NCBI GenBank assembly: GCA_937948815.1
Contig: CALFAM010000153.1
Span: 2,212 to 66,211 of the forward strand
Direction: 5' to 3'
DNA length: 64,000 bases
DNA from: an uncultured bacterium
Lineage (GTDB): Bacteria > Acidobacteriota > Thermoanaerobaculia > Multivoradales > J023
The notes under the pieces were generated by a model. The model did not search any database, was not told the DNA's origin, and saw only the letters and a program-made list of their open reading frames with translations. Below are positions 8,642 through 44,277 of this stretch, one piece after another (position 1 is the first letter of the stretch; each line of letters starts with the position of its first letter). The position numbers were made by a program, and so were the translations under genes.

Positions 8642-11600
8642 ATGAGCGCCGGACCGACGATCCCAGGATGCATGCACGCCGACCTCGAGACGCTCGTTGA
8701 GCTGCTTCGAGAGCGAGCTCGGCAGGGCCCGGAACAGCTTGCCATGCGCTTTCTCCTCGATGGAGAAAGCGAGGTTGCCGAGGTCAGCTACGCCGAGCTG
8801 GACGCGCGAGCACGGGCGATTGCCGCACACCTCCAAGCGCGCGCCCCCCAGGGCGAGTGCGTGCTGCTGCTCATGCCACCGGGGCTCGACTATGTGGCGT
8901 CGTTCTTCGGCTGCCTCTATGCCGGGGTGATTGCCGTACCGGCCTACCCACCGTTGAGCAAGCGCCAGATGGGGCGTGTTCAGGAGGTCGTGAACGACTG
9001 CGGTGCCGACCAGGCCCTGACCACGAGCTCCCTACTGCGCAAGGTCACCTCGCTCGAAGGCGACCTCTCGTGGACCGCGGTCGATACGCTTCCTTCCTCG
9101 CAGGCCGATGCTTGGCGCGCGCCGGCGATCAGGCCCGATACCCGAGCGTTCTTGCAGTACACCTCGGGATCCACGTCGCAGCCCAAGGGCGTCATCCTCA
9201 GCCACGCGAACCTGCTGCACAACTCGCGCTGCATCCACACCTGCTTCGACCACAATGCCGCCAGCCGCGGCGTGATCTGGCTTCCGCCCTACCACGACAT
9301 GGGCTTGATCGGCGGCATCATCCAGCCGGTCTACGGTGGCTTTCCGGTCACCTTGCTGGCGCCGGTCAGCTTTCTGCAGCGCCCCTTTCGATGGCTCGAG
9401 GCGATCAGCCGCTACCAGGCGACGACCAGCGGCGGTCCCAACTTCGCGTTCGAGCTGTGCGTGGCGCGTGCGCAGATGCAGCCGGAGCAGCTTTCGGATC
9501 TGGATCTCTCGTCCTGGGACCTGGCGTTCATCGGCGCCGAGCCGACGCAGCGCGCAACCATCGATCGATTCGCCGACACGTTTGCCGGCTGCGGATTCCG
9601 CCGCGAAGCTTTCTACTCCTGCTACGGCCTGGCGGAGGCCACGCTGATTGCAACCGGCGGTGCCAAGCCGACGCCGCCGGTCGTCGGCCGCTTCTCCGCC
9701 GAAGCGCTGCGCGACGGTCGGTCGTGCGTACCGGCCGCGGGCGAATCGGCGCGCGCCCTGGTCGGTTGTGGCGTCGCGGTGGAAGACACGGAAGTGGCCA
9801 TTGTCGACCCGCAGAGGAAGCGTCGAATGGCCTCCGGCTCGGTCGGCGAAATCTGGTTGCGCGGTCCGAGCATCTCGCAAGGCTACTGGCAGCGCCCGGA
9901 GGTCAGTGCGGCGGTCTTCGGGGCTGAGATCGAGGCCGAGGGCACCGCCGCCGGCCCCTACATGCGCACGGGTGACCTCGGCTTTCTCGATGATGGCGAG
10001 CTCTTCGTCACGGGGCGCATCAAAGACCTGATCATCGTCCGCGGTGCCAACCACCATCCCCAGGACATCGAGCTCACGGTCTGGCAGAGCGGCGAGGGGC
10101 TGCGCGCCGGCAGTGGTGCCGCCTTCTCGGTCGAGCGCGACGGCGAGGAGCGACTGGTCCTCGTGCAAGAGCTGGATCGCCAGATCCGCCGGCCCGATGT
10201 CGACGCCATCGCTGGTCGGGTGCGCGAAGCGATCGCCGAGCAACACGGTCTCGAGCTCGACACACTGGTGCTGATCCGCGCTGCTTCGATCAGCAAGACC
10301 TCGAGCGGCAAGATCCAGCGCCATGCGTGTCGCCAAGCCTTCCTCGAGGGGGCGCTGCGCGAGGTCGGGCGCTGGAACGCGAAGCCTTCCACCTTGGACG
10401 CCGCTGAGGAAGGCGCGGCAGGCGCCAGGGATGCCCGTGAAACCAGAAGCTCCCGTGAAACCGGCGGCTCTGAGCGCGGCTTCCAGCCCGCCATGCCGGC
10501 CGATCGCGCGTCGGCACGTGTCCGGGACGCGTTGCTGAGTTGGTTGGTCAGCGAGGTCGCGGCGGTCGCCCGGGTGGCGCCGGAGTCCGTGGATCCGCAG
10601 GCGCCTTTGGCGCGTTTCGGCCTGACGTCCAAAGACGTCGTGGCGCTCTCGGGCCGCCTCGAAGAGCGACTCGGGCGGCGGTTGTCACCGACCCTGGCGT
10701 TCGACTATCCGACGATCGAAGCACTGGCCGATCACCTGACGCAGCTTCCCGCGGGTCCGTCGGCCAAAGGCGGTGCCGCGGCAGGTCCGCCGACGGACGA
10801 TGTAGCAACCGTTGCTGAGCCAACCGCAGGAGAAGCCGCACCGATCGCGGTTGTTGGGTTGGGCTGTCGATATCCGCGAGCGGACGGCCCGGACGCCTTC
10901 GCCCGACTGCTGATCGAAGGTGTCGATGCTGTCAGCGAGGTGCCCGATGGTCGCTGGGAAGACGCGCGGGGCCTGACCACCCAATGTGGTGGCTTCCTTT
11001 CAGACGTGCGTTCGTTCGACGCCGACTTCTTCTCGGTGACGCCACGCGAAGCGCGCCACATGGACCCACAGCAGCGGCTGATGCTCGAGGTTGCGTGGGA
11101 GGCTCTCGAGCATGCCGGCATCGCTCCGGAGAGCTTGCGCGGCAGCCGTACGGGTGTTTTTGTCGGCATCAGCACCAGCGACTATGCCCGCCTGCTGTCG
11201 CGGGTACCCGGCCAGATCGACGGCTACGCGGGCACGGGCATGGCGCTGAGCATCGCGGCCAACCGGCTCTCTTTTCTGCTCGATCTGCGCGGTCCGAGCA
11301 TGGCGGTCGACACGGCATGCTCGTCGTCGCTCGTCGCGCTCCATCTCGCGTCCTCCAGCCTCCGGCACGGCGAATGCGACCTCGCCCTGGTCGCCGGCGT
11401 CAACCTGATGCTGGAATCCGATCTGACCACCGCACTTTCGGCTGCCGACATGATGGCGCCTGGCGGCCGCTGCCGCACCTTCGATGCCGCCGCCGACGGC
11501 TATGTGCGGGGCGAGGGATGCGGCGTCGTGGTGCTCGAGCGGCTGTCGGCGGCGCAGGCTCGGGGCGACCGAATTCTCGCCCAGGTTCGCGGCACGGCGA

Positions 11601-14600
11601 TCAATCAAGACGGCCGCAGCAACGGCCTCACCGCCCCCAGCGGGCCGGCCCAGCAAGCCGTTCAACGTGCAGCCCTGGAAGGCGCGGGCATTCGAGCCTC
11701 CGCGATCGGCTACATCGAAGCCCACGGCACCGGTACGCCACTCGGTGATCCGATCGAGATCGATGCGCTCAAGGTCGTCTACGGCGGAGAGGACGGACAG
11801 CCGCCGTGTGCAATCGGCTCGGTCAAGACCAACCTCGGCCATCTCGAAGCGGCCGCGGGTCTCGCTGGGTTGATCAAGGCGGTGCTGGCCCTCGAGCGTG
11901 AGGTGATTCCGCCGAATCTCCACCTCGAGACGCTGAATCCGCACATCGACCTGGCGGGAACGCGGTTGCACCTACCTACTGCGCCCGTGCCCTGGCCGCG
12001 AGGAGAGCGCCCACGCCTGGCCGTCGTCAGCTCGTTCGGATTCGGAGGCACCAACTGCCACGTCGTGCTCGAGGAAGCGCCGGCGCAGGCAACGGCGGAC
12101 GCGATCCGCTCCGCGAGCCCGCCGGAGCCGGTTCCTCGCCGCCCGGCACGCCTCCTGACCCTTTCGGCGCGCAATGCGCCCGCGCTCGAAGCCCTGGCCG
12201 CACGGGTCGCGGAACGCTTCGAGGAAGCTGACGCACCGGATCTGGCCGATGCTGCCTGGACGCTCCAGACGGGGCGCTCGCACTTCGCGCATCGACTGGC
12301 CGTGGTTGCGGGCAACGCTGCCGAGGCAGCGGCTTCGCTGCGGCGCGCCGCGCAAGGGCAAGCTGTGTCTCGAGACGCTGGGTCTCGAGACGCTGGGTCT
12401 CGAGGGATTGCTCCCTACAGCGGGCGTCCGAAGGTGGCATTCTTGTTCACCGGCCAGGGTTCGCAATATGTCGGCATGGGGCGCGCGCTCTACGAGACGC
12501 AGCCCACTTTCCGCGCTGCGCTGGACCAATGCGCCGAGGTCGTGGATTCCCTGCTTCCGAGCCCGCTGCTGGCCTCGATCTTCGACGCAGCGGCCAGCGA
12601 AGACGCGCTGGCCGATACCGCGCTGGCCCAGCCTGCGCTCTTCGCGATTTCCTTCGCGCTGAGCACGCTGTGGCGCTCGTGGGGCATCGAGCCGGACGCG
12701 GTGCTCGGGCACAGTGTCGGTGAATACGCGGCGGCCCAGGCCGCGGGAGTGATGGATCTGCCGACCGCGGCCCGGCTGGCCGCGATCCGTGGGCGCCTGA
12801 TGGCGAGCGTACCGGACGGCGGAGCGATGCTCTCGGTCACCGCTGGCGAAGCGGGCGTGGCCGCGGTGATTGCCGACCACGGCGACGACACGGTGGCCAT
12901 CGCCGCGATCAACGGGCCAGACGCGACCGTCGTGTCGGGAAGCCGGGCGGGAGTCGATGCGGTGCAGTCCGCACTCGAAGCCGCTGGCACGAAGACCCAA
13001 GCGCTGCGCGTGTCTCATGCCTTCCACTCGCCGCTCATGGACCCCATGCTGGACGACTTCGAGCGTGAAGCGTCGGCTCATTCGTTCGCCACACCTCGCT
13101 TGCCCATGGTGTCCAACGTGTCGGGGGCGTGGGCCGGTGAAGAAGTCGCCAGCGCGTCCTACTGGCGGCGCCATGCACGCGCGCCGGTCCGCTTTGCGGA
13201 TGGCATGCAGGTGTTGCTCGATGAAGGCTACGAGACCTTGATCGAGATCGGCCCGCACCCCGTGCTGCTCGGCATGGGCCGAGCCTTGCCCGGCGCGAGC
13301 GGGCACTGGCTGCCGAGCCTGCGACGCGGCCGGCCGCCTTGGTCACAGCTCCTCGATACCTTGGGGAAGCTGTATGTAGCTGGCCATCGTCCGGACTGGG
13401 CCGCCCTCCAGGGCGACGAGAAGCGCCGGAAGGTGGCGATGCCGACCTACCCGTTCCAGCGCCAGCCCTACTGGATCATGCTGGAAGGTGAAGCGCGATC
13501 TCGGGCACACGCATCGGAGTTGGGCGACAGCCATGCCACCGGCCTGGTGAGTCGCCGCATTCCCATGGCGCGCTCGGGGGACGCCTACTTCGAAATCTGT
13601 GTGGCCCAAGACGCTCCGAGCTTCCTCGCCGACCACCGCGTCGCGGGGCGCGTGGTGCTCCCGGCCGCCGCTTTTCTCGAGCTTGCCTCACAAGCCGCTG
13701 GGCAGCTTGCCGGCCGAAGCGCCCGCCTGCCCGTGATCACCTTGGAAGATCTGGGCTGGGAGCAGCCCCTCGAGCTGACCGGTCGCGGCAGCCGGGTGCA
13801 GGTCGTGGTTTCCCCCGAGGACAACGCGGCCGGGCGGCCCTTCGAGATCCTCTCCCAAGCACTGAACGAAGCCGATCCGGGGGAAGGCCCAGACGACGAG
13901 CCCAAAAAAGAAGCCTGGCGCCTCCACGTCCGCGGCCGAATCATCCAGCGTGTTGCCGCCGACACGCCCGTTCCTGCCGAGCACGATGACGGCACGCTCG
14001 AAGCGCTTCGTGACCGCTGCACCGAGGCCGTCGAGGTCGACGATGTCTACCGCCGCTTCGACGCGATCGGCCTGGCGTACGGGCCCGCCTTCCGTGGTCT
14101 CGTCGACGTTTGGCGCGGTGACGATCACGACGTCCTCGCCCGCCTTCGCCTGCCGCCGGGCGCGGGGTCCTCGTCCGGCGTCCGTCTACACCCGGTCTTG
14201 CTCGACGCTGGCCTGCAACTTTTCGGTGCCGCCTATGCCGGCGTCGACGACGACCTCTTCCTGCCCTTCGGCCTCGACAGCATCGTGGTCGAGGGCACGC
14301 TCGACGGCGAGATCTGGGCCCACGGTCGCCTCGAGCCCGAACGGGCGGGCAGTGGCATCTTGACCGGCGACTTGAACCTCTACGATGTCCGCGGCCGCCT
14401 TCTAGCTCGCCTGCGTGGCCTGGCGCTGCGCCGCACGCCGCGGGCCGGCTTCGAGCAGTTACTCGGGGCCCAGCCCCAACATGACGACCGTCGCCATGAC
14501 CGGCTCTATCGCCTGCGTTGGGCCGACGCCCCCCAGCTCGATCCACCGACGCCGTCCGAGTCGGCGTGGGCTGGCACCTGGTGGATCTTCTCGGACCGCA

Positions 14601-17496
14601 GCAATCTCGGAGCACGGCTTGCCGAGCGGATCGGCGCGCGTGGCGGGCGGGCCTGGGTCGTCGAGCCCGGCCCCTATCGCGCCTCCGCCAGCGCGACGGA
14701 CGAACCGTGCCGCGTCGATCCGGAACGTCCCGACGACTTCCGCCGCCTGGCCCAGGACACCACAGAGGACGATCAGCCGCTCGCCGGCGTCGTCTACCTG
14801 TGGAGTCTCGACGGCGCCGAGGATCCGTTGTCGGGTGGCCTGCGAAGTACCGCCGGCCTGCTGCATGTGGCACAAGCCCTGGTCGACGACGCCGTGACGC
14901 GATCGCCGAGGCTGTGGATCCTGACCCGTGGCGCCGACGGGTCGTCTGGTGTCGGATTGTGCGGCGCGCCCCTGTGGGGTCTGGCGCGTACAGTCGGCCT
15001 CGAGCACCCCGAGCTGGCAACCACCTTGATCGATCTGGCGCCGCACGACGGTGAGGCTGCCTCGGGTCGGGCCGAAGAAGAAGCCGAGCACGTTTGCCGA
15101 GAGATGCTCTCAGGATCGGCAGAGCCCCAGGTCGCCTGGCGCGACGGCGTTCGCCGTGTGGCGCGCCTGGTCCGCGCCGAAGCGGCCGTGGATCCGGCAG
15201 GTGGCGGTGGCCGTGCACTGGCCCTGCCGGCCGATCGCGCCTGGCGGCTCGACGTCGACGAACGCGGCGCGCTCGATGCCCTGCGCGTGCGCCCGGTGCC
15301 GCGGACGGCACCGGCTGCCGGGGAGATCGAGATCGAAGTCCGCGCCGGGGGCCTCAACTTCCGCGACGTGCTCAACGTCCTCGGGCTCTATCCGGGCGAT
15401 GCCGGGTTGCTGGGCAACGAGTGTGTCGGTGAAGTGCGAGCCGTGGGTGCGGGTGTCGAGACCTTCTCTCCCGGCGATCGCGTCTTGGCGATTGCTTCAG
15501 GCGCGTTCGCCCGCTACGTGACCACATCGGCGAACCTGGCCGCGCGCGTGCCCGAGCGCCTGAGCGATGTCGAAGCGGCGACGCTCCCGATCACTTTCCT
15601 CACCGCATCCTACGCCCTCGAGCGCCTGGCGAAGATCCAGCCGGGCGAGCGGGTGCTGATCCACGCGGCTGCCGGCGGTGTCGGCATGGCAGCGGTTCAG
15701 ATCGCGCGCCGGGCCGGTGCCGAGATCTTCGCCACAGCAAGCCCAGGAAAGTGGTCGGTGCTCGAAGCCTGCGGTGTCCGTGCACCAATGAGCTCCCGGA
15801 CCCTCGATTTCGCAGAGCAGGTTCGCGCTCGCACGGGCGGCGAAGGCGTCGACGTGGTGCTGAACTCGTTGGCAGAGGACTTCATTCCCGAGAGTCTTTC
15901 CCTCGTGCGCGCAGGCGGACGGTTCCTGGAAATCGGGAAGCGCGGCATCTGGAGCTCCGAGAAGGTCGCCGCCGCCCATCCGGAGATCGGCTACCACGTG
16001 ATTGCGCTCGACGAGCTGTGTGAAGCGGAGCCGGAGACCATCCGCGACCAGCTTTCGGTGGTGATCGCAGCCTTCGAACACGGTGACTACGAGCCCCTTC
16101 CCCATCGCGTCTTCCCGGTCGCCCAGGCCGTGGAGGCCTTCCGCTACATGGCCCAGGCAAAGCATGTGGGCAAGGTCGTACTGACGCCGGAGGCTGCCGA
16201 CGGCACAACCGCCCTGACCGACGAGGCGACGCCCCTGCTGCGGCCGGAGGCGAGCTATTTGGTTACCGGGGCTAGCGGCGGCATCGGCGTTCGCCTTGCG
16301 GTGTGGCTGGTCGAACAGGGCGCGCGGCACCTGGTTCTGCTCAGCCGGCGCGCGCGTGGCGAATGGCCTGACGACGCGCTTCGAGCGGTCGACGCGCTCG
16401 CCGCCGATGTCGAGATCCGGGCCGGCGACGTGACCGATCGTGACCAGATGGCACGCCTGATGGCTGCGTTTGGCGACCGCCTGCCGCCGCTGCGTGGCGT
16501 GTTTCATGCTGCCGGCCTGCTCGACGATGGCGTGCTCACCGAACAGCGCTGGCCACGTTTCGCCGCCGTGCTTGCGCCCAAGGTGACCGGCGCCTGGCAC
16601 CTCCACCAGCTCACCCAAGCCCAGCCGCTCGACCACTTCGTGCTCTTCTCGTCCATCGCTTCGGTGCTCGGATCGCCGGGTCAGACGAGCTATGCGGCCG
16701 GCAACGCCTTTCTCGACGCCTTGGCGCGCCATCGCCATCTCGAGGGTTTGCCCGCCATGAGCATCAACTGGGGACCGTGGGATGAGGTCGGGATGACCGC
16801 TGCATGGCGGGCGCCAGACCAGGCACGTGCGGAAGCGCAAGGGATTCGGTTGCTGTCGCCAAGCGCCAACTTGGCGCAGCTCGGCACGCTGCTGGCCTCG
16901 GCGACAGCGGGCGGTTCAGATCCCTCGGCCTCATCGGCGCGGGCGCAGCACATGGTCGCCGACATCGACTGGACGCGCCTCGTCGGCCAACTTTTCCCAG
17001 CGGGCGCACCGCCCCTTCTTGCCGGACTGACCACGGTGGCTGTGCCCGGTGCGACGCCCGAGATCGTCCGCCAGCTTCGAGCCGCCCCCACGGGACGACG
17101 ACAGGACATGCTGGGCGATCATCTGCGAACCCAGATCGAGCGGGTGGTCGGCGGCGCGGTCGACCTGAGCGATCCCCGTCGCCCGCTCCAGGAGCTCGGT
17201 TTCGACTCCCTGATGGCCGTCGAGTTGCGCAATGTGTTGAGCAGCAGCCTGGGGCAGCCGCTGCCGGCGACGCTGTTGTTCAAATACCCGACCCTCGAGG
17301 CGATCACAGGCCATCTGCTCGCGTTGCTCGGTCTGGCCGAGCCGGAAGGATCCCGTGCGGCGTCCGAGCTCACGGAGCCGTGGTCCGCGGGAGACGGGCC
17401 GGCGGCCGCGGGCGACACCGATGACGATATCGACGAAGGGGAGCTCGCGGCCTTGCTGGCGGCGGAGCTGAGCGAGCTGAAATTGGAGAGGGGAGC

Positions 17497-17500
<4 letters not shown>
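8642..17500 (+). CDS. Type I PKS, loading plus module 1: FAAL-ACP-KS-AT-DH-ER-KR-ACP
   Basis: 2952-aa ORF. Motifs in order, with approximate nt positions:
- FAAL: [14 protein letters not shown] and FadD32-like [13 protein letters not shown] (8.7-10.4 kb)
- ACP: [11 protein letters not shown] (~10.62 kb)
- KS: DTACSSS / [11 protein letters not shown] / [10 protein letters not shown] (10.84-12.09 kb)
- AT: GHSVGEY plus HAFHS, malonyl type (12.43-13.48 kb)
- DH: [31 protein letters not shown] (13.5-14.4 kb)
- ER: [27 protein letters not shown] (15.2-16.2 kb)
- KR: [24 protein letters not shown] (16.25-16.8 kb)
- ACP: [11 protein letters not shown] (~17.2 kb)
The stop overlaps the next start (ATGA 17497-17500). 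Confidence 0.95.
12367..12404 (+). repeat. 15-bp in-frame tandem repeat (GTCTCGAGACGCTGG, about 2.5 copies) in the KS-AT linker
   Basis: Read directly: 12367-12381 and 12382-12396 are identical, and 12397-12404 is a partial third copy. It encodes [14 protein letters not shown] second small in-frame repeat (CGAACACCG x2 plus a partial copy, 37999-38020, encoding ANTANTAN) lies in the last PKS gene. Confidence 0.9.
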
Positions 17501-21693
<4,193 letters not shown>

Positions 21694-21706: not shown

Positions 21707-22135
21707 TCAAGGGCGATGGTCGGCAGTCGGTATCGTGTCCAGCCGCTCGCGAAGCCGGGCTTCTCCGCCCCCGGCCAAGCCGTTGATCCGGAATACCTCC
21801 TTGCCATCACGAAAGAGTGCGACCAGGGGGAGCGATCCTACCCGGAAGGCTTCGCGCATCGCTCGGTCCGGGAAGATGAAACGGTCGACGTCGATCTTGA
21901 CCACGCGGAGGCGGTCGGCATAGTCGCGAGCAACTTGTTGCATGGCCGGCAACTGCCGGCGGCAAGACATTCACCAGTCAGCGTAAAAATCGACAAGAAG
22001 AAATCCCTTCTGATTTGCCACGGCTTCCACCGCGACCTTCCGGTCGAGCTCGACGATGACGGTGTCTTCTGCCACGGGGGCCGAAGTAAAAAGGTTCAGA
22101 GAAGAAACGAGCAATACGGTAGCGATCAGATGCAC
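21707..22135 (-). CDS. Thioredoxin-fold selenoprotein (in-frame UGA = Sec at 21971-21973; active site W-U-M-S-C) with an N-terminal hydrophobic signal-like segment
   Basis: ORFs 21971-22195 and 21707-21970 share a frame and are separated only by TGA. The joined translation reads ...KGFLLVDFYADW-U-MSCRRQLPAMQQVARDYADRLRVVKIDVD...GSLPLVALFRDGKEVFRI. That is a complete Trx fold, including the cis-Pro region. GTG 22135 is preceded by GAGGAGG (22140-22146) and gives (M)HLIATVLLVSSLNLFTSAP. An alternative upstream start is ATG 22195. Confidence 0.8.
21938..21965 (-). promoter_or_regulatory. Candidate bacterial SECIS hairpin downstream of the thioredoxin UGA
   Basis: The minus-strand RNA reads UUGC-C-GCCGGC-AGUU-GCCGGC-CAU-GCAA. 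It has a 6-bp GC upper stem with a G/U-containing tetraloop and a 4-bp lower stem. The upper stem starts 10 nt after the UGA. Spacing and shape resemble the hairpin after the selD UGA in this window. Confidence 0.6.
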
Positions 22136-36900: not shown

Positions 36901-38930
36901 CAGCGTCGCTGCTCGGGGCCGCCGGGCAAGGGAACTATGCTGCTGCCAACGCCTTCTTGGACGGGCTTGCCCACTACCGTCATGCATTGAATCTACCGGC
37001 GACCACCATCAACTGGGGCCCCTGGAGCGAAGTCGGTATGGCTGCCGCGCTCGGAAGTCAGGTCGAGAGTCAGAAGGCAGAGCGAGGTCTGGGAACCATC
37101 TCACCTGCCGAGGGCTGCCGGATCTTGGAGCAGATCCTGATCAAGAGACCTGCTCAGGTGGGTGTCGTGCGTGCAGACTGGGACCTTCTGCTCCGTTCAC
37201 CGGCTGCTGCGCTGCGTCAGACCTCCTTGTTTCGGGACTGGGACGCGGCACGATCGAATGGGGTTGCTGGGTCCAAGGTCGAAGAATTCGAAGGACTCTC
37301 CGAAGGAAATCGGGTCGAGCGTCTCGGAAATTACCTCACCGAGCAGCTTGCCCGGGTCCTGGGACTCGAGTCGAGCGAAGTTCGTCGGGATGCGCCGCTG
37401 ATGTCGATGGGATTCGACTCGCTGATGGGGCTCGAGCTTCGGGAACAAGTGGAGTCTGATCTGGGGGTGACCCTCCCCATGGTCAACATTCTACGTGGCG
37501 ATCATGTGGATGACTTCGCCCTGCACCTTGCTCGCGCGCTCGAGGGGCCTGCGCCGGGCGACATGCTTTCACCAGCCGGTCGGCCCCCACAAGTGTTATC
37601 GGCCGCGCGGCCGAATGAAGAGCCCGGGCCAGGGCTCTTCGACATCGAGCTATCAGCCTCCTTGGTTCAGCCAGACACGGGACTGACCGTTCGCCTGGCA
37701 CCCGCCGAGTGGCCAGCGAAGAGGCAGTCGGTGCGCGTCGAGGTGTCGCTGACGCTACGAGATGATCAAGGCGACGAGCTGCGACCGATCGGCACTGCCT
37801 CCATCGACCGTCCAGAGGCTCGGGAGTTCCATCTGGATACCCAGATGCTCGAGAACGGCATTTATCTGATCGACTACGTGTTGACGAGTGCGGAGGGAAA
37901 GGTGCTGGTGCAATTGTGGCGCCGCTTTGCCGTTCAGCATGGGGTGAATGCGCGTCTTGCACGCCTTCGAGAGAGACTCGAGCAGGTACCAGAACCAGCG
38001 AACACCGCGAACACCGCGAATGCAGCGCGAGCAACCGTTGCCGAGATCCTCAGCCTGCTGAGTCAGGCGCAAGAGATCTATTTGGCACGCAATGGTGAGA
38101 CGGACACGCCAAAGGCGAGTCAAGCGAGAGGGCTGAACCGACAGCTCAAGACACGCCTTCCATTCGAAGCCGCCGAACAGCTCGACCTCGCCGAGAACAT
38201 CGTCACTGCGCTTCACGACCAAATCGATCCGTTCGAATGCCTGCGTGGCGATCTCCGACTGTCACTCCGTTCGGCGGCCGACGGGGCAATCGTTCCCTAT
38301 CGCCTCTACGTGCCGGACGCATTCGAGCTCGGAGCGTCGTGGCCGCTGGTTATCCTGCTCCATGGAATCCTGGGCGACGAGTGCTCCTTCTTCGAGCTCG
38401 AAAATGGGCAGTGCAAGCGGCTCGCCGAACGCAATAGCTGCATCCTGCTCGCACCGGCCGGACGTGGGCCGGGTGGAAGCCACAACGAGCGAACGAGCTC
38501 GGACCTCTTCGAGATGACGCGGCAGGCGCGAGAGATTCTTCAACTCAGAGAAGCGCCCATCTACCTTGCTGGACACTCGATGGGAAGTGAGTGGGCATGG
38601 AAGATCGGGTTTGGGCATTCCGAGCGCATTGCCGCCCTCGGGCTCATTTCAGGCGTGCCGATCTATGAGGAGGCCGCGGAGCTCGTCGGCCGCTCGCCGA
38701 CCCTGCCCGTGCGCCAGTACCACGGCGTACGGGATCCAATCTCGAAGATCGATGTCGCTCGGCGAATTGCGACACTTGCGGACTCGACCCTGCTCGACTA
38801 CCAGTTCGTGGAGTACGCTGACCGCGCCCATCATGATGTGGCCGAGTTGGCCATGGTCGAGATTTTCGAGTTCTTCGTCATGCATTCCATCAAGGCAACC
38901 CAGACCGCCAAGGAACCCGTCGAGGATTGA
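30939..38930 (+). CDS. Type I PKS module 4 plus release: KS-AT-[DUF2156/MprF-C-like]-DH-KR-ACP-[unknown ~250 aa]-alpha/beta hydrolase
   Basis: 2663-aa ORF.
- KS: ETACSSS / [11 protein letters not shown] / [10 protein letters not shown]
- AT: GHSVGEY plus HAFHS
- ~33.7-34.7 kb DUF2156-like: FDLHGGRMKRLRSKFNAFDRTG, MDLEFYRQDVRPGALEFGIV, NFEFKKKFAPAIEPFYISR
- DH: FHPLLGNRL, LGEHRVFERIVLP, YGPSFRCI, HPVLLDACLQ
- KR: YLVTGGLGGLG, YAAANAFLD
- ACP: MGFDSLMGLEL
- C-terminal hydrolase: PLVILLHG, GHSMGS (38569-38586), HGVRDPI, ADRAHH. Confidence 0.93.
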   Translation: MDAYAKKIAGYSKAHLSLLCLELKKRLDAAEGAATEPIAIVGMSCRFPGGANSPDAYWQLLRQGRDAIAPIPEGRWDQDSYYDADPDATGKMYCQYGGFLDELDGFEPQLFNISPREASSLDPQHRILLELTWEALEDAGQDPTSLRGTRTGVFVGFGSDDFTKNQLLDLPPERFDIYLGTGGGYCYGGGRLSHTLGLNGPNVSLETACSSSLVALHLACQSLRMGECPQAIAGGVHLWMSPVGGIFLSKVRALAPDGRCKTFDSRADGFVRGEGGGVVVLKRLSDAKRDGDQIHAVIRASAINHDGPSSALTVPYGPAQQAVIETALRQAKVQPHEIGYVEAHGTGTPLGDPIEVRSLAKVLGRAAGRSADNPLVIGSVKTNFGHLEAAAGIAGVLKVVLALKREVIPPHLHFRQANSEICLEDGPFIVPTESISWGRGSRKRLAGVSSFGMSGTNAHAILEEAPRAIDGNGDSGRPAHLLTLRARSEAALRQLATRYADHLSEHPSLPLQDVCATANTGRTAWPWRLAAVADSGRELGEKLRALAADEPSRDVVRGQAAPRQAPKVAFLFPGQGAQRVGMGRELYEAEPAFRQAIDECDGYLRPYLDRSLPAMLRDEDAPLDETATTQPVLFALGYALAAMWQHWGIRPDAVLGHSVGEYVAACVAGSLSLEDAATLIAERGRLMQALPADGGMVAVLASAEQVEPLLRPVASQVSLAAVNGPRSVVLSGLRTTLERLCRELAARTIQSRWLPVSHAFHSPLMDPILDTFEELVASRKLGKPKLPLISNLNGRPVDDEIMQPSYWRRHARECVRFADGLSCLANQGFEIFLECGPASTLLGMGRKCLPAKEGTWLPSMRAEAPWHGTLRTLGALYAKGADVSWSRFHGDAWQRRSLPTYPFERRRYWLDLDMQRPQPKIVLEQEGRQDPELGPVIDELFSAWGGDGVMAINRRVTSPWLLLTPARKSLFCFNQRREALLVTSYVGPPAARESSIEYLLRYTRSRELDLTLFVHGHHAESLARMGLSTTPVGVWQTLADTRSFDLHGGRMKRLRSKFNAFDRTGQGRVDECRVGDDSRVDQQIVEMIGHWVKRKGRKAPFVSELERQIRSGALHPGHRLFLVYATNDLESVILLSPIPQKNGHLMDLEFYRQDVRPGALEFGIVRILELLRAEGSTYLSLGSTFGTQLSAHENEDPEVAALLGALHDQGLLNEDGNFEFKKKFAPAIEPFYISRLKGAGTASIATVLAMLSGKEGGDFDGVVADPSDDSPKALAPHADERDQNALERETFHPLLGNRLSLAVRDVVFHAVLSTDLPHLAFLGEHRVFERIVLPGAAYIETALAGAEHVLGARPCVLEDLHLQEALVLRDEERLDVQTIFARDSAGALTFQVSSARRKDESGEWIVHGSGRVTLTESAEALAESAKESLPTLRERCTDSVDIESFYRVASTHGIAYGPSFRCIEELWSGEGEALGRVVLPDRLAEAGSRFVVHPVLLDACLQFPGIAWVSLRGEAEPGINYLPFRLGRFCQYRPWCRELWSHVRIRPVADERPESLVMDVSLFDRQGNRVAELSEFAARRTSRDVMRLLLRDDAEDLLYEMRWQPAARHAKGESDRSAAGRRDVAEVRTPEVGAWLVTTDTDGLGDLVADALAARGAEVVVVRPPPIGASSECLAAAEADDAAEFRKIFREAARQSADTTFGIVHCCSSSADIDFESESQWVIRDAQNRGSRRLLAILDELSAAGVAADGAKVWCVTRNAQPIHGGAVDPSLAPLWGLGRTIAQEHPELWGGMVDLPPTAGREETGRLAGELLRGDGEDHVAFRGNERLVARLTACDAAQPTSGSLAFRANATYLVTGGLGGLGLTVARWLVDRGARHLALLGRTGNDTGTASADLASLREAGASLVILKADCSQKDALASAIEEIHQSQPPLRGVFHAAGVLADALLQHQTWPQFREVMAPKIDASWHLHSLTRDIPLDYFVLFSSAASLLGAAGQGNYAAANAFLDGLAHYRHALNLPATTINWGPWSEVGMAAALGSQVESQKAERGLGTISPAEGCRILEQILIKRPAQVGVVRADWDLLLRSPAAALRQTSLFRDWDAARSNGVAGSKVEEFEGLSEGNRVERLGNYLTEQLARVLGLESSEVRRDAPLMSMGFDSLMGLELREQVESDLGVTLPMVNILRGDHVDDFALHLARALEGPAPGDMLSPAGRPPQVLSAARPNEEPGPGLFDIELSASLVQPDTGLTVRLAPAEWPAKRQSVRVEVSLTLRDDQGDELRPIGTASIDRPEAREFHLDTQMLENGIYLIDYVLTSAEGKVLVQLWRRFAVQHGVNARLARLRERLEQVPEPANTANTANAARATVAEILSLLSQAQEIYLARNGETDTPKASQARGLNRQLKTRLPFEAAEQLDLAENIVTALHDQIDPFECLRGDLRLSLRSAADGAIVPYRLYVPDAFELGASWPLVILLHGILGDECSFFELENGQCKRLAERNSCILLAPAGRGPGGSHNERTSSDLFEMTRQAREILQLREAPIYLAGHSMGSEWAWKIGFGHSERIAALGLISGVPIYEEAAELVGRSPTLPVRQYHGVRDPISKIDVARRIATLADSTLLDYQFVEYADRAHHDVAELAMVEIFEFFVMHSIKATQTAKEPVED

Positions 38931-38934: not shown

Positions 38935-39993
38935 ATGAACGAAGCTCAACTCGCTGCGGAAAGCCGTCTCGAAAAGCACCAAGCGGAGGCGGAAGAGGCC
39001 GAGCCGAAGAAGGCCGGCGAACAGGCAAGTAGCGGGCATTCGCACGCCCGGATCGAAAAGCCCAAGACGCTGCTCGGCAAGGTGCTCTCGGTCGGTGCAT
39101 TTCCATTTGCCCTGACGGCGGTCTTCTGTGGCTACTTCTACGCATTGGAAAAGGGCTACAACCTCGCCGTCTCGATCACGGTGCTCGCCTTTCTGAATCT
39201 CGTGTTCGTCATGTTTCTCGAGAAGATCTTGCCACACACGTATCGTTGGAAGATTCGGTGGCAAGCGCTCAAGACGGACATTCTGCACGTCGTCTTCTCC
39301 GACCGCATCAATTACCTGGTGTTCGAGCTCTTGCTGGGCGGTGTGCTTCTCTGGATATCGCTGAAGGTGTCCGAGCTTTTCAACTACGCACTGTGGCCTT
39401 CGCAGTGGCCGCTTCTGCTGCAACTTCCGTTGACTTGCCTCGTCGCAGAGTTCTTTCACTACTGGTGGCACCGCGCATCGCACGAGTTCGAGTGGATCTG
39501 GAAGTTCCATGCGACCCACCACAGTTCTGAGCACATGTACTTTCTGGCCGCGGCGCGGTTCCATCCCTTCGACAACCTCATGGCCCACGCCGTGCAGATG
39601 TTTCCGCTGGTCGCGCTTGGCGTCCCCAAGGAAACTTTGGCCCTCTACATGCTATTCGTCAGCGTGCAAGGGCCATTTGGGCACGGCAATGTTTCCATTC
39701 GTCTCGGCCCGCTCAACTATCTGTTTGCTGTTGCCGAGGTTCATCGTTGGCATCATTCGCAGAACCTCCAGGATGCGAACTCGAACTACGGGGGTGGAAT
39801 CATCTTTTGGGATCTCGTTTTCGGAACATTCAATCTGCCCAAGGATCGGGAACATCAGCCTGATGATCTCGGCTTGGTCGACATGCCGCGCTTTCCCCAG
39901 AACTATGTGGGTCAGCTGGCGTCACCCTTCCGATGGGGAAAGCTCACCAAAGACGATCCAGAGGGTGGGAAATATCACGGGCGGCGAAGGTAG
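38935..39993 (+). CDS. Fatty acid hydroxylase / sterol desaturase superfamily membrane di-iron enzyme
   Basis: ATG 38935 lies 4 nt after the PKS stop. Multiple TM segments and three His boxes (HYWWHRASH, HATHHSSEH, HRWHHSQ). The ORF-track start 38566 is rejected because it overlaps the PKS. Confidence 0.85.
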   Translation: MNEAQLAAESRLEKHQAEAEEAEPKKAGEQASSGHSHARIEKPKTLLGKVLSVGAFPFALTAVFCGYFYALEKGYNLAVSITVLAFLNLVFVMFLEKILPHTYRWKIRWQALKTDILHVVFSDRINYLVFELLLGGVLLWISLKVSELFNYALWPSQWPLLLQLPLTCLVAEFFHYWWHRASHEFEWIWKFHATHHSSEHMYFLAAARFHPFDNLMAHAVQMFPLVALGVPKETLALYMLFVSVQGPFGHGNVSIRLGPLNYLFAVAEVHRWHHSQNLQDANSNYGGGIIFWDLVFGTFNLPKDREHQPDDLGLVDMPRFPQNYVGQLASPFRWGKLTKDDPEGGKYHGRRR

Positions 39994-40021: not shown

Positions 40022-40852
40022 TCAGGCTTCGCTCGATCTCGGCCCTCGCAACCGGTACGAGAGCACCTTGGAAGGTCTCATGGCCGGGGGAAGATGGCGA
40101 AGGAGACGAAATAGGCCGAGGCGTGGCTCCGACTGTTTGCAGTACTGCCACTCCTCGAGCAGCGCGATGCCTTCTCCCCAGGTTTCGACTTCCCGTCCTC
40201 TGCTCACGCCCCATTGGAAGCGAAGACCCATCGGGCCAACCGTCGGATGAAGTCGGCTGAGCAAGACTTCGAGTGGCGAGATCGCGGTGAAAATAAGCTG
40301 AGAACCCGGAAAGCGGCGATTGAGACTCGAGATGAGCCACCGAACCTGTTGTTCCTCGAGATACATCAGAACGCCTTCGGCGATGAAGACGATCGACTCA
40401 GGCGCGTGACCCTCGAGCGATTTCATCCACGATTCGTCCAAGATCGAAGAGGCAACGAAGGTTCGGCACGGTTCTTCGTCCAACAGCCTTCGGCGTAGGG
40501 AAATGACATCCGTGAAGTCGATGTCGACCCAAGAGGTAGAGCCCTGATGGACGCGCTCGAAGCGTGTATCAAGGCCGCAGCCGAGCGTTACGACCAACGT
40601 CTCGGGCTGCACGGCCAGAGCTTGTTGAAGCAACGAGTCGATCTTCTGTGTACGCAGTGCGATGACCGTGTTGTAGAGATCCTGCTTGGCAAGTCGAGAG
40701 AAGTCGTAATCGATGCGACCAATCAGTTGTACGGCCTTGGCATCGGTCACGATCGGCCGGTCTCGCTCAGATTCGAGCGCCCGGCTGAAGAGCGGAAGGA
40801 GCAGTGTCTCGGAAACGCCCTGCAGATCTGCTTTGTGACCGTTCTCGTTCAT
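40022..40852 (-). CDS. Class I SAM-dependent O-methyltransferase, TcmP / leucine carboxyl methyltransferase family
   Basis: LQGVSETLLLPLFSRALE...VVTLGCGLDTRFERV...WVDIDFTDVISLRRRLL matches the LCM/TcmP pattern. ATG 40852 is preceded by GGAAGGAA. The gene is convergent with the hydroxylase. Confidence 0.8.
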   Translation of the reverse strand: MNENGHKADLQGVSETLLLPLFSRALESERDRPIVTDAKAVQLIGRIDYDFSRLAKQDLYNTVIALRTQKIDSLLQQALAVQPETLVVTLGCGLDTRFERVHQGSTSWVDIDFTDVISLRRRLLDEEPCRTFVASSILDESWMKSLEGHAPESIVFIAEGVLMYLEEQQVRWLISSLNRRFPGSQLIFTAISPLEVLLSRLHPTVGPMGLRFQWGVSRGREVETWGEGIALLEEWQYCKQSEPRLGLFRLLRHLPPAMRPSKVLSYRLRGPRSSEA

Positions 40853-41837: not shown

Positions 41838-42752
41838 ATGACGTCAGCCGTCGAGCTTCGATTGCTAGAGATTTTCTATCATGTCTACAACATGCGTAGC
41901 TTTTCGAAGGCTGCGCAGCACCTTGGCCTTAGTCAGCCCACGATCAGCGGCCATATCAAGGCAGTGGAGAGCCATTTCGGCGTACCGCTATTCGATCGCA
42001 AGGGCCGTACAATCGAAGCCACGGACGCTGGTCATCTGCTCTATCGAAAATGTGAAGGCTTGATCGAGCTCCAAGGAGCAGCGAGCGATGCCATGGATCG
42101 CTTTCTGAACCACTTCGAAGGGAGGCTCCACCTGGGCGCCAGCAATATTCCAGGTGAGTACTTTCTACCGCCGATTCTGAGCCGCTTTCGTCAACGCTTT
42201 CCGCAGATTCAGGTCACGCTGCACATCCAAGGGACGCAACCCACGCTTGCAAAGGTCGTGTCCGGGGAAGTGAGCGCCGGTTTCATAGGTGGCCTTCCCT
42301 ATGGCGAACAGGTTCACTCGGTGCGGTTTGCTTCGGATGAGCTGGTGGCGGTTTGTTCACCCGCGTTCGGTGAGCACGCCTCGATCACCTCTTTGACTGC
42401 GGAGCAGCTCCGGGAGACGGACTTTGTCGCGCGCGAGCCAGGATCGGGCACTCGGTCGGCAATGGATCGAAGGCTCCAAGAGATCGGCGTTCGCTATGAC
42501 GACCTCCGGATTGTTGCCGAGCTCGGTAGCAATACCGCCGTGCTCGAAGCCGTGCGGGCGGGGATCGGCATGTCTATCGTCTCTTCATTGTGCGTATCGC
42601 GGGAGCTATCGTCGGGCGTGCTTCAGGCCATTCCGCTCGAAGGATTGCCGCCGCTCGAGCGGAACTTCTTTCGGGTGCACGCCCGCCATCGAACGCTGTC
42701 ACCGCTGGTCGAGGCATTCTTTGGCTTTGTGGACGAGCAAAAGAGGGCCTGA
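41838..42752 (+). CDS. LysR family transcriptional regulator
   Basis: N-terminal HTH LRLLEIFYHVYNMRSFSKAAQHLGLSQPTISGHIKAVE, followed by a LysR substrate-binding domain of the expected length (304 aa). Confidence 0.9.
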   Translation: MTSAVELRLLEIFYHVYNMRSFSKAAQHLGLSQPTISGHIKAVESHFGVPLFDRKGRTIEATDAGHLLYRKCEGLIELQGAASDAMDRFLNHFEGRLHLGASNIPGEYFLPPILSRFRQRFPQIQVTLHIQGTQPTLAKVVSGEVSAGFIGGLPYGEQVHSVRFASDELVAVCSPAFGEHASITSLTAEQLRETDFVAREPGSGTRSAMDRRLQEIGVRYDDLRIVAELGSNTAVLEAVRAGIGMSIVSSLCVSRELSSGVLQAIPLEGLPPLERNFFRVHARHRTLSPLVEAFFGFVDEQKRA

Positions 42753-42759: not shown

Positions 42760-44277
42760 GTGGCGAAGCTCGGCGTCGAACGAACTGCCGTTGCTGCCAC
42801 AATGGTCTTTGGCGTGAGCCCGATCCTCGGGGTCGCGGCCGCGGTTTCGACAGATGGGCCGCTCTCCGGTGTCGCGCTGGCCCTGCGTGCGGCAGCCTGT
42901 GGGCTGGCGGCGGTGGTTGTCGTACGGCTGATCGCTCGACGGTTGCCCGAGGGCCTCGATGGGCTGGCGCGGCAAGCGCCCAAGAAGTGCGCACTCTGGC
43001 TCTTGCTGGCATTGGTTGCGACTCTGCAGATCGCCCGCGTCAGTGTGTTCATGGTGGATCCCGCCGCGAGGTGGGCGTCGGCCTTCCCGCCTAGCGAGGA
43101 GGCGGCTCGGCACACCTGCCTGAGTGCGTACGTTTATGCGGCCGAGCTCCATCGGCGTGGAGACGACGCTGCGGTCTACCAACGCGCGACCTATCGTGAC
43201 CCGACCGCCCAGACCGACATCGGCAACCTTGCACCGTATCTGGGCGATGCCTTCCTGTATCCAGCGCCGTTCCTGGTGGTCGCGCGTGGTCTCCTGGCAG
43301 TCAGTCCAGATTTTCTTGTCATTCGTAGCGTCTGGTTCGTCTTGAATATCTTGGTATTCATGGCAGGTGCTCTGGCGCTGGCAGCGTGGATCGGTGGGCG
43401 TACGGGCCTCCGCGTGGGTTTCTTGCTTCCGGCCGCGCTCATGGCCATTCCGACGCTTCTCAATTTCCAGTTTGGGCAAGTCCATCTGGTGACCCTCGTC
43501 GGCGCCACGCTGGCAATGGCCTTGTTCGCGACGCGGTACGACAAACTGGGCGGTCTCTTGCTGGGCGCGGCGATTCTCGTCAAAGTGTTTCCCGCGATTT
43601 TGTTGCTCTATCTGGCGTTCCAGCGCCGCTGGCGACCGGTGATCGCCACCATCGCCATGCTTGTCGTGTTGACCGCCACGAGCATGGCAATTCTGGGTAC
43701 AGAGCTGTTCACCCATTACGTGTATCGCGCCGTCGACATTGGCATGGGTGCCGGTATTCCTTCGACGTCGGTGACGGCCTTGGCCAATGACATCGGAATC
43801 TTCCGGGTCGCCGAGAAGCTCGCATTCCTGGGTGTCGTGCAGCAGGGCAACGGGTTGGGCTCGGCGCTTCTGTGGGCCTACACGGCAGTCCTCGGCGTGA
43901 TGGCCTGGTGCGCGGCAAAGCCGCGTGGGCGGCAGGCCGCAAGCCGACACGAACGCGCCCTGATCTGGCTCGGCCTCTTGGCGCTGGCTTCGCTTCGCGC
44001 GCCTGTAGCGCCTTCGGCCTATATCGCCACCAGCGGAATCTGGATTCTGAGCTTGCTCGCGGCCCGAGTCGGGCCGCGTCGGCTCAGTTTGATGGTGGCG
44101 GCGGGCGCTGCTTGGCTGCTGCTGCAAGGGTTGCCGGGCGCGCCATCCCCCAAGCTTCTGATCATGCTCTCGTTCTTGCCACAGCTCGTCTTCGTAGGGG
44201 TCGCGATGGTTGCGATCTTCATCCTCAGCCAAGCGCGATCAGAAACGGCTTCCTTGGGCTTGAATCAATCGGTTTGA
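42760..44277 (+). CDS. Polytopic membrane protein, DUF2029 / GT87-like (GT-C fold) putative glycosyltransferase
   Basis: About 12 hydrophobic segments. The first-loop region reads ...VYQRATYRD...LGDAFLYPAPFLVVARGL, resembling the DUF2029 F-x-Y-P-P pattern. Start is GTG 42760 or ATG 42802. The 42424 start is rejected because it overlaps LysR. Confidence 0.55.
   Translation: MAKLGVERTAVAATMVFGVSPILGVAAAVSTDGPLSGVALALRAAACGLAAVVVVRLIARRLPEGLDGLARQAPKKCALWLLLALVATLQIARVSVFMVDPAARWASAFPPSEEAARHTCLSAYVYAAELHRRGDDAAVYQRATYRDPTAQTDIGNLAPYLGDAFLYPAPFLVVARGLLAVSPDFLVIRSVWFVLNILVFMAGALALAAWIGGRTGLRVGFLLPAALMAIPTLLNFQFGQVHLVTLVGATLAMALFATRYDKLGGLLLGAAILVKVFPAILLLYLAFQRRWRPVIATIAMLVVLTATSMAILGTELFTHYVYRAVDIGMGAGIPSTSVTALANDIGIFRVAEKLAFLGVVQQGNGLGSALLWAYTAVLGVMAWCAAKPRGRQAASRHERALIWLGLLALASLRAPVAPSAYIATSGIWILSLLAARVGPRRLSLMVAAGAAWLLLQGLPGAPSPKLLIMLSFLPQLVFVGVAMVAIFILSQARSETASLGLNQSV

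Follow-up and report, generated by a model that had tools for sequence, protein, structure and literature searches.

What kind of molecule is made by a FAAL-primed PKS that carries rare tailoring domains inside its own modules? The locus that raises this question lies within a window of 64,000 nucleotides (the whole stretch of DNA that we analysed) and consists of five large PKS genes followed by tailoring genes. With some confidence, we read it as a functional FAAL-primed cis-AT type I PKS, organised in two operons, that makes a long-chain, lipid-like polyketide. Because two rare tailoring domains are built in (a flavin oxygenase and an MprF-like transferase), the product is most likely a modified long-chain lipid that has not yet been described. 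The original prediction did not recognise the domain string as a characterised pathway, and our full-text literature search, which found no characterised pathway matching the locus, is consistent with this.

The assembly line and its relatives

The five PKS genes lie on the + strand between positions 8642 and 38930, and their domain order is confirmed by Pfam, NCBIfam and motif checks. The first gene, pks1 (8642..17500), encodes an AMP-binding/FAAL domain, PP-binding, KS, AT, DH, ER, KR and PP-binding, in this order, that is, FAAL-ACP loading and module 1 (KS-AT-DH-ER-KR-ACP). Module 2 is divided between two proteins. Its front half (KS-AT-DH and a second, degenerate PKS_DH_N) is encoded by pks2 (17497..21693), whose start shares an ATGA overlap with the pks1 stop, and its back half (LLM, degenerate DH C half, KR and ACP; Pfam, TIGR04020) by pks3 (22508..26053). 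The pks3 reading frame opens at 22454, and alignment with relatives makes the ATG at 22508 the probable true start. Module 3 (KS-AT-KR-ACP) is encoded by pks4 (26055..30935), whose product exactly matches a called-gene protein on record. Module 4 (KS-AT-DUF2156-DH-KR-ACP-X-hydrolase) is encoded by pks5 (30939..38930), whose product is identical to the library protein P0122. The four-module, FAAL-primed string that had been predicted is correct in every detail.

The PKS domain calls cannot be due to chance, because their Pfam E-values range from 1e-10 to 1e-100. All five reading frames (1181–2952 aa) are free of stop codons, their starts and stops are coupled, and the motifs of all KS, AT, KR and ACP domains are intact. 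GHSVGEY and HAFHS occur in all four ATs, and TACSSS, HGTGT and NxGH in all four KSs, so the predicted malonyl type of the ATs and the retention of the KS Cys-His-His residues both hold. In pks1 the DH has HxxxGxxxxP, the ER has GGVG, and the KR is of the B type since it carries LDD. With these KS residues, an AT (GHSxG) in each module, the ACP serine and collinear modules, the locus belongs to the modular cis-AT type I PKSs, and it is a real and probably functional one.

The best NCBIfam matches of the FAAL domain are FAAL families (PRK05850, 447 bits; FadD32, 429 bits), with scores under the full-length cut-offs because the FAAL is one domain of a larger protein. As expected of FAAL loading, an ACP comes next, after an AMP-dom_DIP2-like C-terminal lobe (Pfam). 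In L002, L092, L095, L128 and L154, a FAAL immediately precedes LLM modules. The predicted fatty acid starter would be adenylated and loaded on ACP0, and four malonyl-specific modules would lengthen the chain by eight carbons. Module 1 would carry out full reduction (DH-ER-KR), while module 3 would leave a hydroxyl. Domain order and motifs support the earlier proposal of a FAAL-loaded starter, four malonyl extensions and graded reduction. The window gave no tblastn match for a type II TE, a PPTase, an NRPS C domain, a thioester reductase, an MMPL or an Aminotran_5; the absence of NRPS, PPTase and type II TE had been noted before.

The cluster is not a one-off, as it is syntenic in L004 (a soil metagenome contig), L023 (a Myxococcota MAG and the nearest PKS relative) and L166 (a diverged relative). 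L004 has the order KS-AT-DH_N / LLM-DH_C-KR-ACP / KS-AT-KR-ACP / KS-AT-DUF2156-DH-KR-ACP, followed by TR / LCM / LysR. In L023 module 3 is missing, the order is otherwise the same, and PMT_2 and LCM are present in addition. L166 has the tail order of the window, at 62–86% amino acid and about 72% DNA identity.

Release, tailoring genes and the class of product

The C-terminal end of pks5 is unusual for a PKS. An X region of about 240 aa (37536..38258, + strand), which has no Pfam or NCBIfam match and is conserved in L166 only, is followed by an alpha/beta hydrolase of the esterase type (38271..38903, + strand; GHSMG, with Asp and His present). Its best structural relative by sequence is LC-Est1C (PDB 3WYD, E 1.4e-22), there are weak matches to PHB-depolymerases/esterases, and none of the 15 homologues found is fused to a PKS. 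A canonical C-terminal TE was rejected, as PF00975 reached only E 0.09 and 13 bits. We presume from these matches that the fused LC-Est1-type esterase is the off-loading domain; it would free the acid, or a delta-lactone via the C-5 hydroxyl. Release by an esterase-type hydrolase rather than by a PKS TE is a connection that the original prediction missed.

The genes that follow are those that had been predicted: Pfam bears out a hydroxylase, a TcmP-type methyltransferase, a LysR regulator and a GT-C-like protein. The membrane di-iron FA_hydroxylase (38935..39993, + strand; PF04116, 98 bits) has its ATG 4 nt after the pks5 stop, and its product exactly matches a protein on record. It is OlsE-like: against the NCBIfam OlsE equivalog it scores 168 bits (positions 4–284 of 293), below the cut-off of 475, and it is still a PF04116 member. 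The LCM/TcmP-type SAM methyltransferase (40022..40852, − strand) scores 65.3 bits against PF04072 (gathering 22.3) and 64 bits against TIGR00027, below the cut-off of 93.55. The LysR-type regulator (41838..42752, + strand; Pfam) is followed after 8 nt by a polytopic GT-C glycosyltransferase of the GT87 family (about 42760..44277, + strand; PF09594, 69.7 bits, gathering 25). Under LysR control, the methyltransferase, the OlsE-like hydroxylase and GT87 could tailor a membrane-associated, amino-lipid-like product.

How firmly do these genes belong to the pathway? The original prediction would have been refuted if the tailoring genes were not conserved together with the PKS, and the outcome is divided. 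The LCM methyltransferase is conserved with the PKS in L004, L023, L166 and L082, and LysR adjoins the cluster in L004 and L166. FA_hydroxylase and GT87, on the other hand, are conserved only in L166, a moderately diverged relative; the GT-C in the equivalent place in L023 is of another family (PMT_2), and L004 has no GT-C. A lipid product is plausible, and so is an envelope role, given the OlsE-like membrane hydroxylase, the GT-C enzymes and an MMPL in the clade-mate L167. The part of the prediction that places the lipid in the envelope is unproven.

The phthiocerol dimycocerosate / phenolic glycolipid pathway of mycobacteria joins the FAAL FadD26 to the modular PKS PpsA-E and includes an LLM-family ketoreductase, an O-methyltransferase, glycosyltransferases and MmpL7; the envelope lipid that it makes is O-methylated and glycosylated at a later stage. 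By this description the two systems are alike in that a FAAL passes a long fatty acid to collinear, reducing cis-AT modules and in that an enzyme of the LLM superfamily is involved. They differ in that our LLM is a MupA-type FMN oxygenase within a module, whereas the mycobacterial one is a free F420 reductase. Moreover, the window lacks partners like Mas or PapA5 as well as MmpL, its DUF2156 has no counterpart in the mycobacterial pathway, and its host is not an actinobacterium, going by nearest relatives.

One could also argue that the product diffuses as a specialised metabolite, such as a long-chain 6-alkenyl-5,6-dihydro-2-pyrone or a hydroxy-dienoic acid, and is no envelope lipid; FA_hydroxylase, GT87 and LysR would then be neighbours or optional tailoring genes outside the core. 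The domain order predicts a 5-hydroxy-2,6-dienoyl end, which is the classic precursor of an unsaturated delta-lactone. The patchy distribution of FA_hydroxylase and GT-C enzymes fits as well, and L004 and L023 end in a thioester reductase instead of the hydrolase, so that the end group is variable, as in secondary metabolism. However, FA_hydroxylase is translationally close to pks5, the order of FA_hydroxylase and GT87 is kept in L166 despite a DNA identity of only about 72%, and GT-C enzymes and MMPL are found again in three of the clade's four lineages. We regard a diffusible metabolite as a serious but rather unlikely alternative to an envelope lipid.

Two tailoring domains inside the modules

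The first built-in domain is the LLM of module 2 (about 22517–23536 in pks3, + strand; Bac_luciferase). It belongs to the MupA/Atu3671 family TIGR04020, with 480.9 bits against a curated cut-off of 244.45, and covers the profile over its full length (positions 1–340 of 341). The LLM sits inside a split dehydratase, whose N half is the second DH of pks2 (about 21268–21579, + strand) and whose C half (PS-DH, about 23612–24040, + strand) follows the LLM in pks3. By its residues this split DH is catalytically dead: in the N half His is replaced by Tyr and Gly by Asn, and in the C half the catalytic Asp is replaced by Glu, a loss that the original prediction had overlooked. L023 carries the same dead split DH within an otherwise intact cluster, which suggests a tolerated role as a scaffold. 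The halves would probably also serve as a docking interface between pks2 and pks3, a docking that we assume, as the split DH is dead. The first DH of pks2 is complete and retains its catalytic His and Asp, and module 2 has an intact DH and KR together with a MupA-family FMN monooxygenase.

MupA alpha-hydroxylates ACP-bound thioesters, a function established in this family for MupA only (PMC10952193). By analogy, the LLM would oxygenate the module-2 intermediate on-line, most likely by alpha-hydroxylation, which would correspond to C-6 of the final chain. Since the DH of module 2 is active, the substrate may instead be an enoyl thioester; alpha-hydroxylation would then no longer be the obvious reaction, and possible alternatives would be epoxidation and gamma-oxidation. 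Both enzymes are of the TIGR04020 family, which works on ACP-tethered polyketide thioesters, but MupA is free-standing and recruited in trans to the KS0 bimodule of a trans-AT PKS (PMC10952193), while our LLM is covalently inserted between dead DH halves, in a cis-AT elongating module split over two proteins.

The second built-in domain is the DUF2156 (LPG_synthase_C) of module 4 (33843..34637 in pks5, + strand; PF09924, E 8e-18). Its AF2 model (pLDDT 86.7) has an MprF/aaPGS-like tandem-GNAT fold, and the top 28 Foldseek matches are all aa-tRNA-dependent transferases: the TM-scores to aaPGS/MprF structures (5VRV, 4V35, 4V36, 7F47) are 0.66–0.73, and the fold also resembles FemX and Sbb17. Judging from an alignment of 10 cis-AT homologues, in which 42 columns are invariant, the domain is under selection. 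Among 150 matches listed, 25 are cis-AT proteins without SH and 92 are trans-AT proteins with SH; by this count the arrangement KS-AT-DUF2156-DH-KR-ACP recurs as a type of cis-AT module.

In the leinamycin DUF-SH system, the "DUF" is this same DUF2156, which is related to aminoacyl-tRNA-dependent chemistry; the original prediction made neither connection. Our domain is of the same family as the DUF of LnmJ and GnmT from leinamycin and guangnanmycin biosynthesis, which is proposed to make a Cys or thiocysteine adduct in LnmJ (PMC8479088). In both cases the DUF lies in a PKS beside an ACP-bound unsaturated or hydroxy intermediate, and trans-AT homologues match our domain at 28–38% identity. Yet the module described here is cis-AT, with an AT in every module of the line, a DH stands where the PLP-dependent SH (Beta_elim_lyase) would follow the DUF, and tblastn found homologues of neither SH nor Aminotran_5 within the window. 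Because both are absent, a Cys adduct, if formed, would escape cleavage to -SH or -SSH.

MprF/aaPGS enzymes aminoacylate a lipid hydroxyl with aa-tRNA as donor. The DUF2156 shares with them (PDB 5VRV, 4V35, 4V36, 7DUW) the tandem-GNAT catalytic fold (TM about 0.7) and the C-terminal motifs MDLEF and FKxKF. In contrast to MprF, it is embedded in a soluble PKS without the N-terminal flippase membrane domain, its identity is about 16–19%, its putative acceptor is an ACP-bound polyketide, and its use of tRNA is inferred. We know of no PKS DUF2156 for which tRNA dependence has been demonstrated. Nevertheless, the modelled fold suggests that the PKS DUF2156 is probably an MprF-like, tRNA-dependent transferase. 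Module 4, with its KR, DH and DUF2156, would then take an aminoacyl-tRNA, most likely Cys-tRNA, and place its amino acid on C-3 of the final intermediate. This may be a 3-hydroxy or a 2-enoyl intermediate, because the DH of module 4 is intact, and the amino acid should be retained because a C-S lyase partner is absent. Tandem tRNA-Cys genes lie within six acidobacterial DUF-SH clusters, all from one phylum and of the SH-containing trans-AT type. Should Cys-tRNA be the donor of the DUF2156 and the cysteine be retained whole, the product would be a cysteine-conjugated lipid, which would already be new.

Could the two domains instead be structural relics, and the product the plain hydroxy/enoyl fatty acid of the original, minimal reading? 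The DH that hosts the LLM is clearly degenerate, and the DUF2156 has no lyase partner in the window (tblastn). It is hard, however, to reconcile a relic with a full-length LLM that far exceeds its family cut-off, or with a DUF2156 that folds with high confidence and retains 42 invariant positions, including the motifs common to aaPGS. Furthermore, both module types recur widely. We consider relics improbable.

The sel locus and the antisense selenoprotein gene

The original prediction also missed two features near or inside the cluster. First, a sel locus directly adjoins it (44265..47261), with selA (44265–45683, − strand; TIGR00474, 531 bits), tRNA-Sec (45874–45968, + strand; RF01852, 67 bits; ARAGORN anticodon UCA) and selD (46197–47261, + strand), whose reading frame contains a TGA of its own and continues beyond it. 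The cluster of L167 contains a tRNA-Sec-like gene and selA and parallels this arrangement, and the sel locus is possibly linked to the PKS pathway. Second, 815 nt separate pks2 from pks3, and this space is occupied in antisense orientation by a thioredoxin-like gene (21707..22195, − strand). Its in-frame TGA (21971–21973) replaces the first Cys of WCxxC (W-U-M-S-C in translation), the match to the thioredoxin profile TIGR01068 extends across the TGA (66 bits, under the cut-off of 96.8), and a hairpin with a GU-containing loop begins about 12 nt 3' of it. No counterpart was found in the relatives, where the equivalents of pks2 and pks3 overlap. By this comparison the insertion is specific to the window's lineage, and with the antisense selenoprotein gene in place, pks2 and pks3 have lost the translational coupling that is kept in relatives.

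It is tempting to connect these features: in this clade without SH, the donor of the DUF2156 could be Sec-tRNA(Sec) instead of Cys-tRNA, with the sel genes supplying the pathway, the selenoprotein taking part and selenium ending up in the product. We think this doubtful; if true, the selenium-containing lipid or polyketide would be without precedent. Least probable is that the cluster is decaying or silent, as the lineage-specific insertion mid-cluster, the lost catalytic residues of the split DH and the lack of a nearby PPTase might suggest, for long stop-free reading frames and intact KS, AT, KR and ACP motifs speak against it, and L023 keeps an otherwise intact cluster around the same dead split DH.

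Domain order of the locus and its relatives

The locus is a member of a recurrent, uncharacterised family. Five large ORFs lie on the forward strand between positions 8642 and 38930 of the window (G+C about 65%), and Pfam matches the domain string of the original prediction exactly across them. The first gene, pks1 (8642-17500), encodes FAAL-ACP-KS-AT-DH-ER-KR-ACP and pks2 (17497-21693) KS-AT-DH followed by the N half of a second DH. The C half lies in pks3 (22508-26053), behind a MupA-family luciferase-like monooxygenase (LLM) and ahead of a KR and an ACP. KS-AT-KR-ACP makes up pks4 (26055-30935), and pks5 (30939-38930) consists of KS-AT-DUF2156-DH-KR-ACP, about 240 unassigned residues and an alpha/beta hydrolase. 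Because the E-values reach down to 1e-100, this pattern is not due to chance.

All four ATs carry the predicted GHSVGEY and HAFHS motifs, which by the established AT rule means malonyl extender units, and the Cys-His-His motifs are present in every KS. KR1 (LDD) and KR5 (LAD) have a B-type appearance, KR3 and KR4 have a common insertion and keep Lys, Ser and Tyr, and the A-type Trp is absent from all four. As was also predicted, tblastn across the whole window finds no type II thioesterase, PPTase or NRPS (the last searched as its C domain); nor does it find a thioester reductase, MMPL protein or class-V aminotransferase there. As far as domain content can tell, the locus starts from a fatty-acyl unit and extends it four times with malonyl, with the corresponding reduction pattern.

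The same modules recur elsewhere. A soil metagenome contig (L004) carries KS-AT-DH_N / LLM-DH_C-KR-ACP / KS-AT-KR-ACP / KS-AT-DUF2156-DH-KR-ACP, then a thioester reductase, an LCM methyltransferase and LysR; L086, an 84% relative in the comparison with L004, ends 2.6 kb upstream. The closest genome match is a Myxococcota MAG (L023, DUF2156 identity 49%), which has the same order minus the middle module, then a reductase, a PMT_2 GT-C protein and LCM. A diverged relative, L166, shares the tail of the window locus (hydrolase, FA hydroxylase, LCM, LysR, GT87, selA) at 62-86% protein and about 72% DNA identity. By gene content, L004 and L023 release their chains reductively, unlike the window locus.

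Release, tailoring and the proposed product

The ATG of the di-iron fatty-acid hydroxylase lies only 4 nt after the pks5 stop, as close as had been proposed. The other genes expected downstream are also present: an LCM/TcmP-type methyltransferase (reverse strand), LysR and a GT87 GT-C protein, whose gene begins 8 nt past the LysR stop codon. The hydroxylase can be aligned along the whole length of the model for OlsE, the ornithine-lipid hydroxylase, at a score under the cut-off. The divergent LCM and LysR genes are about 1 kb apart (40853-41837), and this interval has no Pfam or Rfam match; its counterpart in L166 is not alignable as DNA, and both flanks are. Further along, after TetR and HlyD genes, an ORF of 1478 aa (55694-60130, forward strand) joins an AcrB-type RND pump (residues 7-997) to an outer-membrane efflux protein domain (1271-1447), an unusual fusion unless a stop or frameshift was missed.

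Judged by profile matches, the C-terminal hydrolase of pks5 is not a PKS thioesterase (PF00975, E 0.09). It belongs with the carboxylesterases, its nearest match being LC-Est1C (3WYD, E 1e-22), and retains Ser, Asp and His. Only 15 homologues were found, free-standing esterases that are too few and too partial to align, and none is PKS-fused. A single-sequence AF2 model of the tail comprising the unassigned residues and the hydrolase reaches a pLDDT of 38, too low for use.

From the domain order, the backbone would be a long saturated chain ending in a 5-hydroxy-2,6-dienoyl-type group. The LLM would oxygenate it near C-6, and DUF2156 would attach an amino acid at C-3, which should be kept, there being no lyase to remove it. 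Hydrolysis or lactonisation would then free the product, and its methylation, hydroxylation and perhaps glycosylation would follow at the membrane. On balance we think that this composite, from starter, extension and reduction through LLM oxygenation and DUF2156-dependent amino acid attachment to release and membrane tailoring, is moderately probable. If the product is indeed a membrane amino-lipid, then it would be a PKS-made counterpart to envelope remodelling of the MprF or ornithine-lipid type, and possibly a new lipid class.

One could also argue that the product is a diffusible metabolite and that the neighbouring genes are unrelated to it, which we consider possible, if doubtful. The expected co-conservation of the tailoring genes with the PKS genes held in part: it is firm for the LCM methyltransferase, and LysR and a GT-C protein recur, whereas the FA hydroxylase and GT87, and with them the fused hydrolase, occur among the relatives compared only in the lineage to which the window belongs.

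In logic, the closest system is probably the mycobacterial FadD26-Pps pathway to PDIM/PGL. In its parts, the locus comes nearest to the mupirocin MupA bimodule and to the leinamycin DUF-SH didomain, in which SH is a cysteine lyase (Beta_elim_lyase). In contrast to these, the window locus is cis-AT, its LLM is covalent and DH-hosted, and SH is missing. Since it lacks defining features of both systems, the locus is a variant rather than a member of either. It joins two module types, a MupA-type oxygenase within a split dehydratase and a lyase-less cis-AT KS-AT-DUF2156-DH-KR-ACP. Both are widespread in soil bacteria; in the full-text literature searched we found neither a description of this architecture nor, in the literature searched, studies of either module type.

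The oxygenase within a split dehydratase

Over its full length, the LLM belongs to the MupA/Atu3671 family, scoring 481 bits where the cut-off is 244. Around it, the His of HxxxGxxxxP is replaced by Tyr in the N half of pks2 and the catalytic Asp by Glu in the C half of pks3; on these residues, the split dehydratase is catalytically dead. No such loss affects the ordinary DHs of pks1, pks2 and pks5, which are intact. It is improbable, in our view, that domains of the locus are silent relics, and a cluster in decay is very improbable.

The arrangement KS-AT-DH_N / LLM-DH_C-KR-ACP, where the protein boundary separates the DH N half from the LLM, is found in L002, L003, L004, L023, L086, L087 (twice), L092 and L095, and direct FAAL priming is frequent in such modules. 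Most of these loci retain the His and Asp of the split DH, which are lost in the window and L023. The window is alone among the split-LLM loci compared in having an extra intact DH in the LLM module. We infer that the split double-hotdog provides the oxygenase with a scaffold and a means of docking. The enzyme would either carry out alpha-hydroxylation or oxidise an enoyl intermediate.

Two successive split LLM modules stand on one contig in L087 (4655-8311 and 11308-15204). Unsplit KS-AT-LLM-KR-ACP modules also exist, in L154 (8336-14155), L158 and L159; small HMMs detect no DH halves flanking the LLM in these. There, the next ORF carries another LLM beside NRPS-like adenylation domains.

DUF2156, tRNA genes and selenocysteine

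When 1.84 billion representatives were searched exhaustively with HMMER, the DUF2156 domain of pks5 (PF09924) gave 273 homologues, nearly all within megasynthases; this supersedes a word-indexed search that had returned one relative only. Among the 150 matches listed, 92 are AT-less and followed by Beta_elim_lyase, which is the leinamycin DUF-SH didomain (PMC3870968, PMC8479088), 25 are cis-AT KS-AT-DUF2156-DH-KR-ACP modules without lyase, and one is cis-AT with a fused class-V aminotransferase. A NifS-like Aminotran_5 gene lies regularly downstream in one cis-AT clade (L169, L170, L171, L006, L007, L048). The window's domain falls in the sister clade, with L023, L004 and L167, where this gene is missing. 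A minimal cluster is found in a Gammaproteobacteria MAG (L082, 44% GC, 1677-13117), with FAAL-ACP-KS-AT-DH-KR-ACP, free-standing DUF2156, Beta_elim_lyase, LCM methyltransferase and hydrolase. Its gene content points to a fatty acid with a 3-thio or 3-methylthio group as the predicted product, and this minimal set links the LCM methyltransferase with the chemistry of the DUF.

The catalytic role of the DUF was called still open in a 2021 paper on the leinamycin family (PMC8479088). Our AF2 model, built on ten cis-AT homologues (pLDDT 86.7), has only aminoacyl-tRNA-dependent transferases among its top 28 PDB neighbours (28/28), led by aaPGS/MprF catalytic domains at a TM of about 0.7 and next Sbb17/Sba18 and FemX. 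ARAGORN finds 28 tRNA genes in all fetched loci. Ten are tRNA-Cys, and these are confined to six trans-AT clusters of acidobacteria, each of which has one to three of them in tandem, separating its trans-AT genes from the gene for the DUF-SH megasynthase (tRNA-Cys(GCA) in L030, 6730-6805; L034, 7944-8157; L038, 9041-9266; L044, 8799-9100; L045, 3125-3200; L078, 6814-6889). These genes suggest that the leinamycin-type DUF may use Cys-tRNA; the loci are phylogenetically close to one another and hence represent few independent events.

In L167, a clade-mate of the window, a tRNA-Sec-family gene (9572-9667, Rfam 49.2 bits) comes next after the DUF2156 PKS gene; a canonical selA (10296-11825, passing the equivalog cut-off) and then TE, FAAL, PPTase and MMPL stand further along in this cluster. 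The tRNA has an aberrant anticodon loop, CUGCAAA plus GGG, with a possible GCA anticodon. The window offers a parallel, with selA, tRNA-Sec and selD at the cluster border and a selenoprotein gene inside. Given the fold match, tRNA-Cys in DUF-SH clusters and tRNA-Sec/selA beside the SH-less clade, aminoacyl-tRNA is a putative co-substrate, and the best-supported reading of sequence and model is that DUF2156 uses aminoacyl-tRNA, normally Cys-tRNA. No tRNA role for the PKS DUF is described in the full-text literature searched.

The sel locus directly adjoins the PKS cluster. The selA gene (44265-45683, reverse strand) overlaps the GT87 3' end by 13 nt. It passes the equivalog cut-off, as does the L167 copy, which rules out a disguised SH-type lyase. 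The tRNA-Sec (UCA; 45874-45968, forward) is the sole tRNA gene in the 64 kb. The forward-strand selD (46197-47261) is itself a selenoprotein (SKTCG-U-AAKLSP), reading through a TGA at 46257-46259; a mechanical ORF list holds only the post-TGA portion (46374-47261).

Within the cluster, the 815-nt gap between pks2 and pks3, whose counterparts overlap in all relatives, is occupied by an antisense thioredoxin-like gene (21707-22195, reverse strand). It has a signal-peptide-like N terminus and a TGA (21971-21973) at the first Cys of WCxxC (W-U-M-S-C), across which the thioredoxin profile match runs. A local hairpin with a GU loop lies downstream of this TGA and is all that fits a SECIS element; the 72-nt fold there is no better than shuffles (z -0.47). 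That Sec-tRNA is the donor for DUF2156 and the product contains selenium is distinctly unlikely; were selenium involved, a new field of selenium natural-product chemistry would open up. In Fulvivirga marina (L072), ARAGORN reports a pair of adjoining tRNA-like genes (7839-7991), both with unusual four-base anticodons, about 2 kb upstream of a DUF2156-SH PKS gene.
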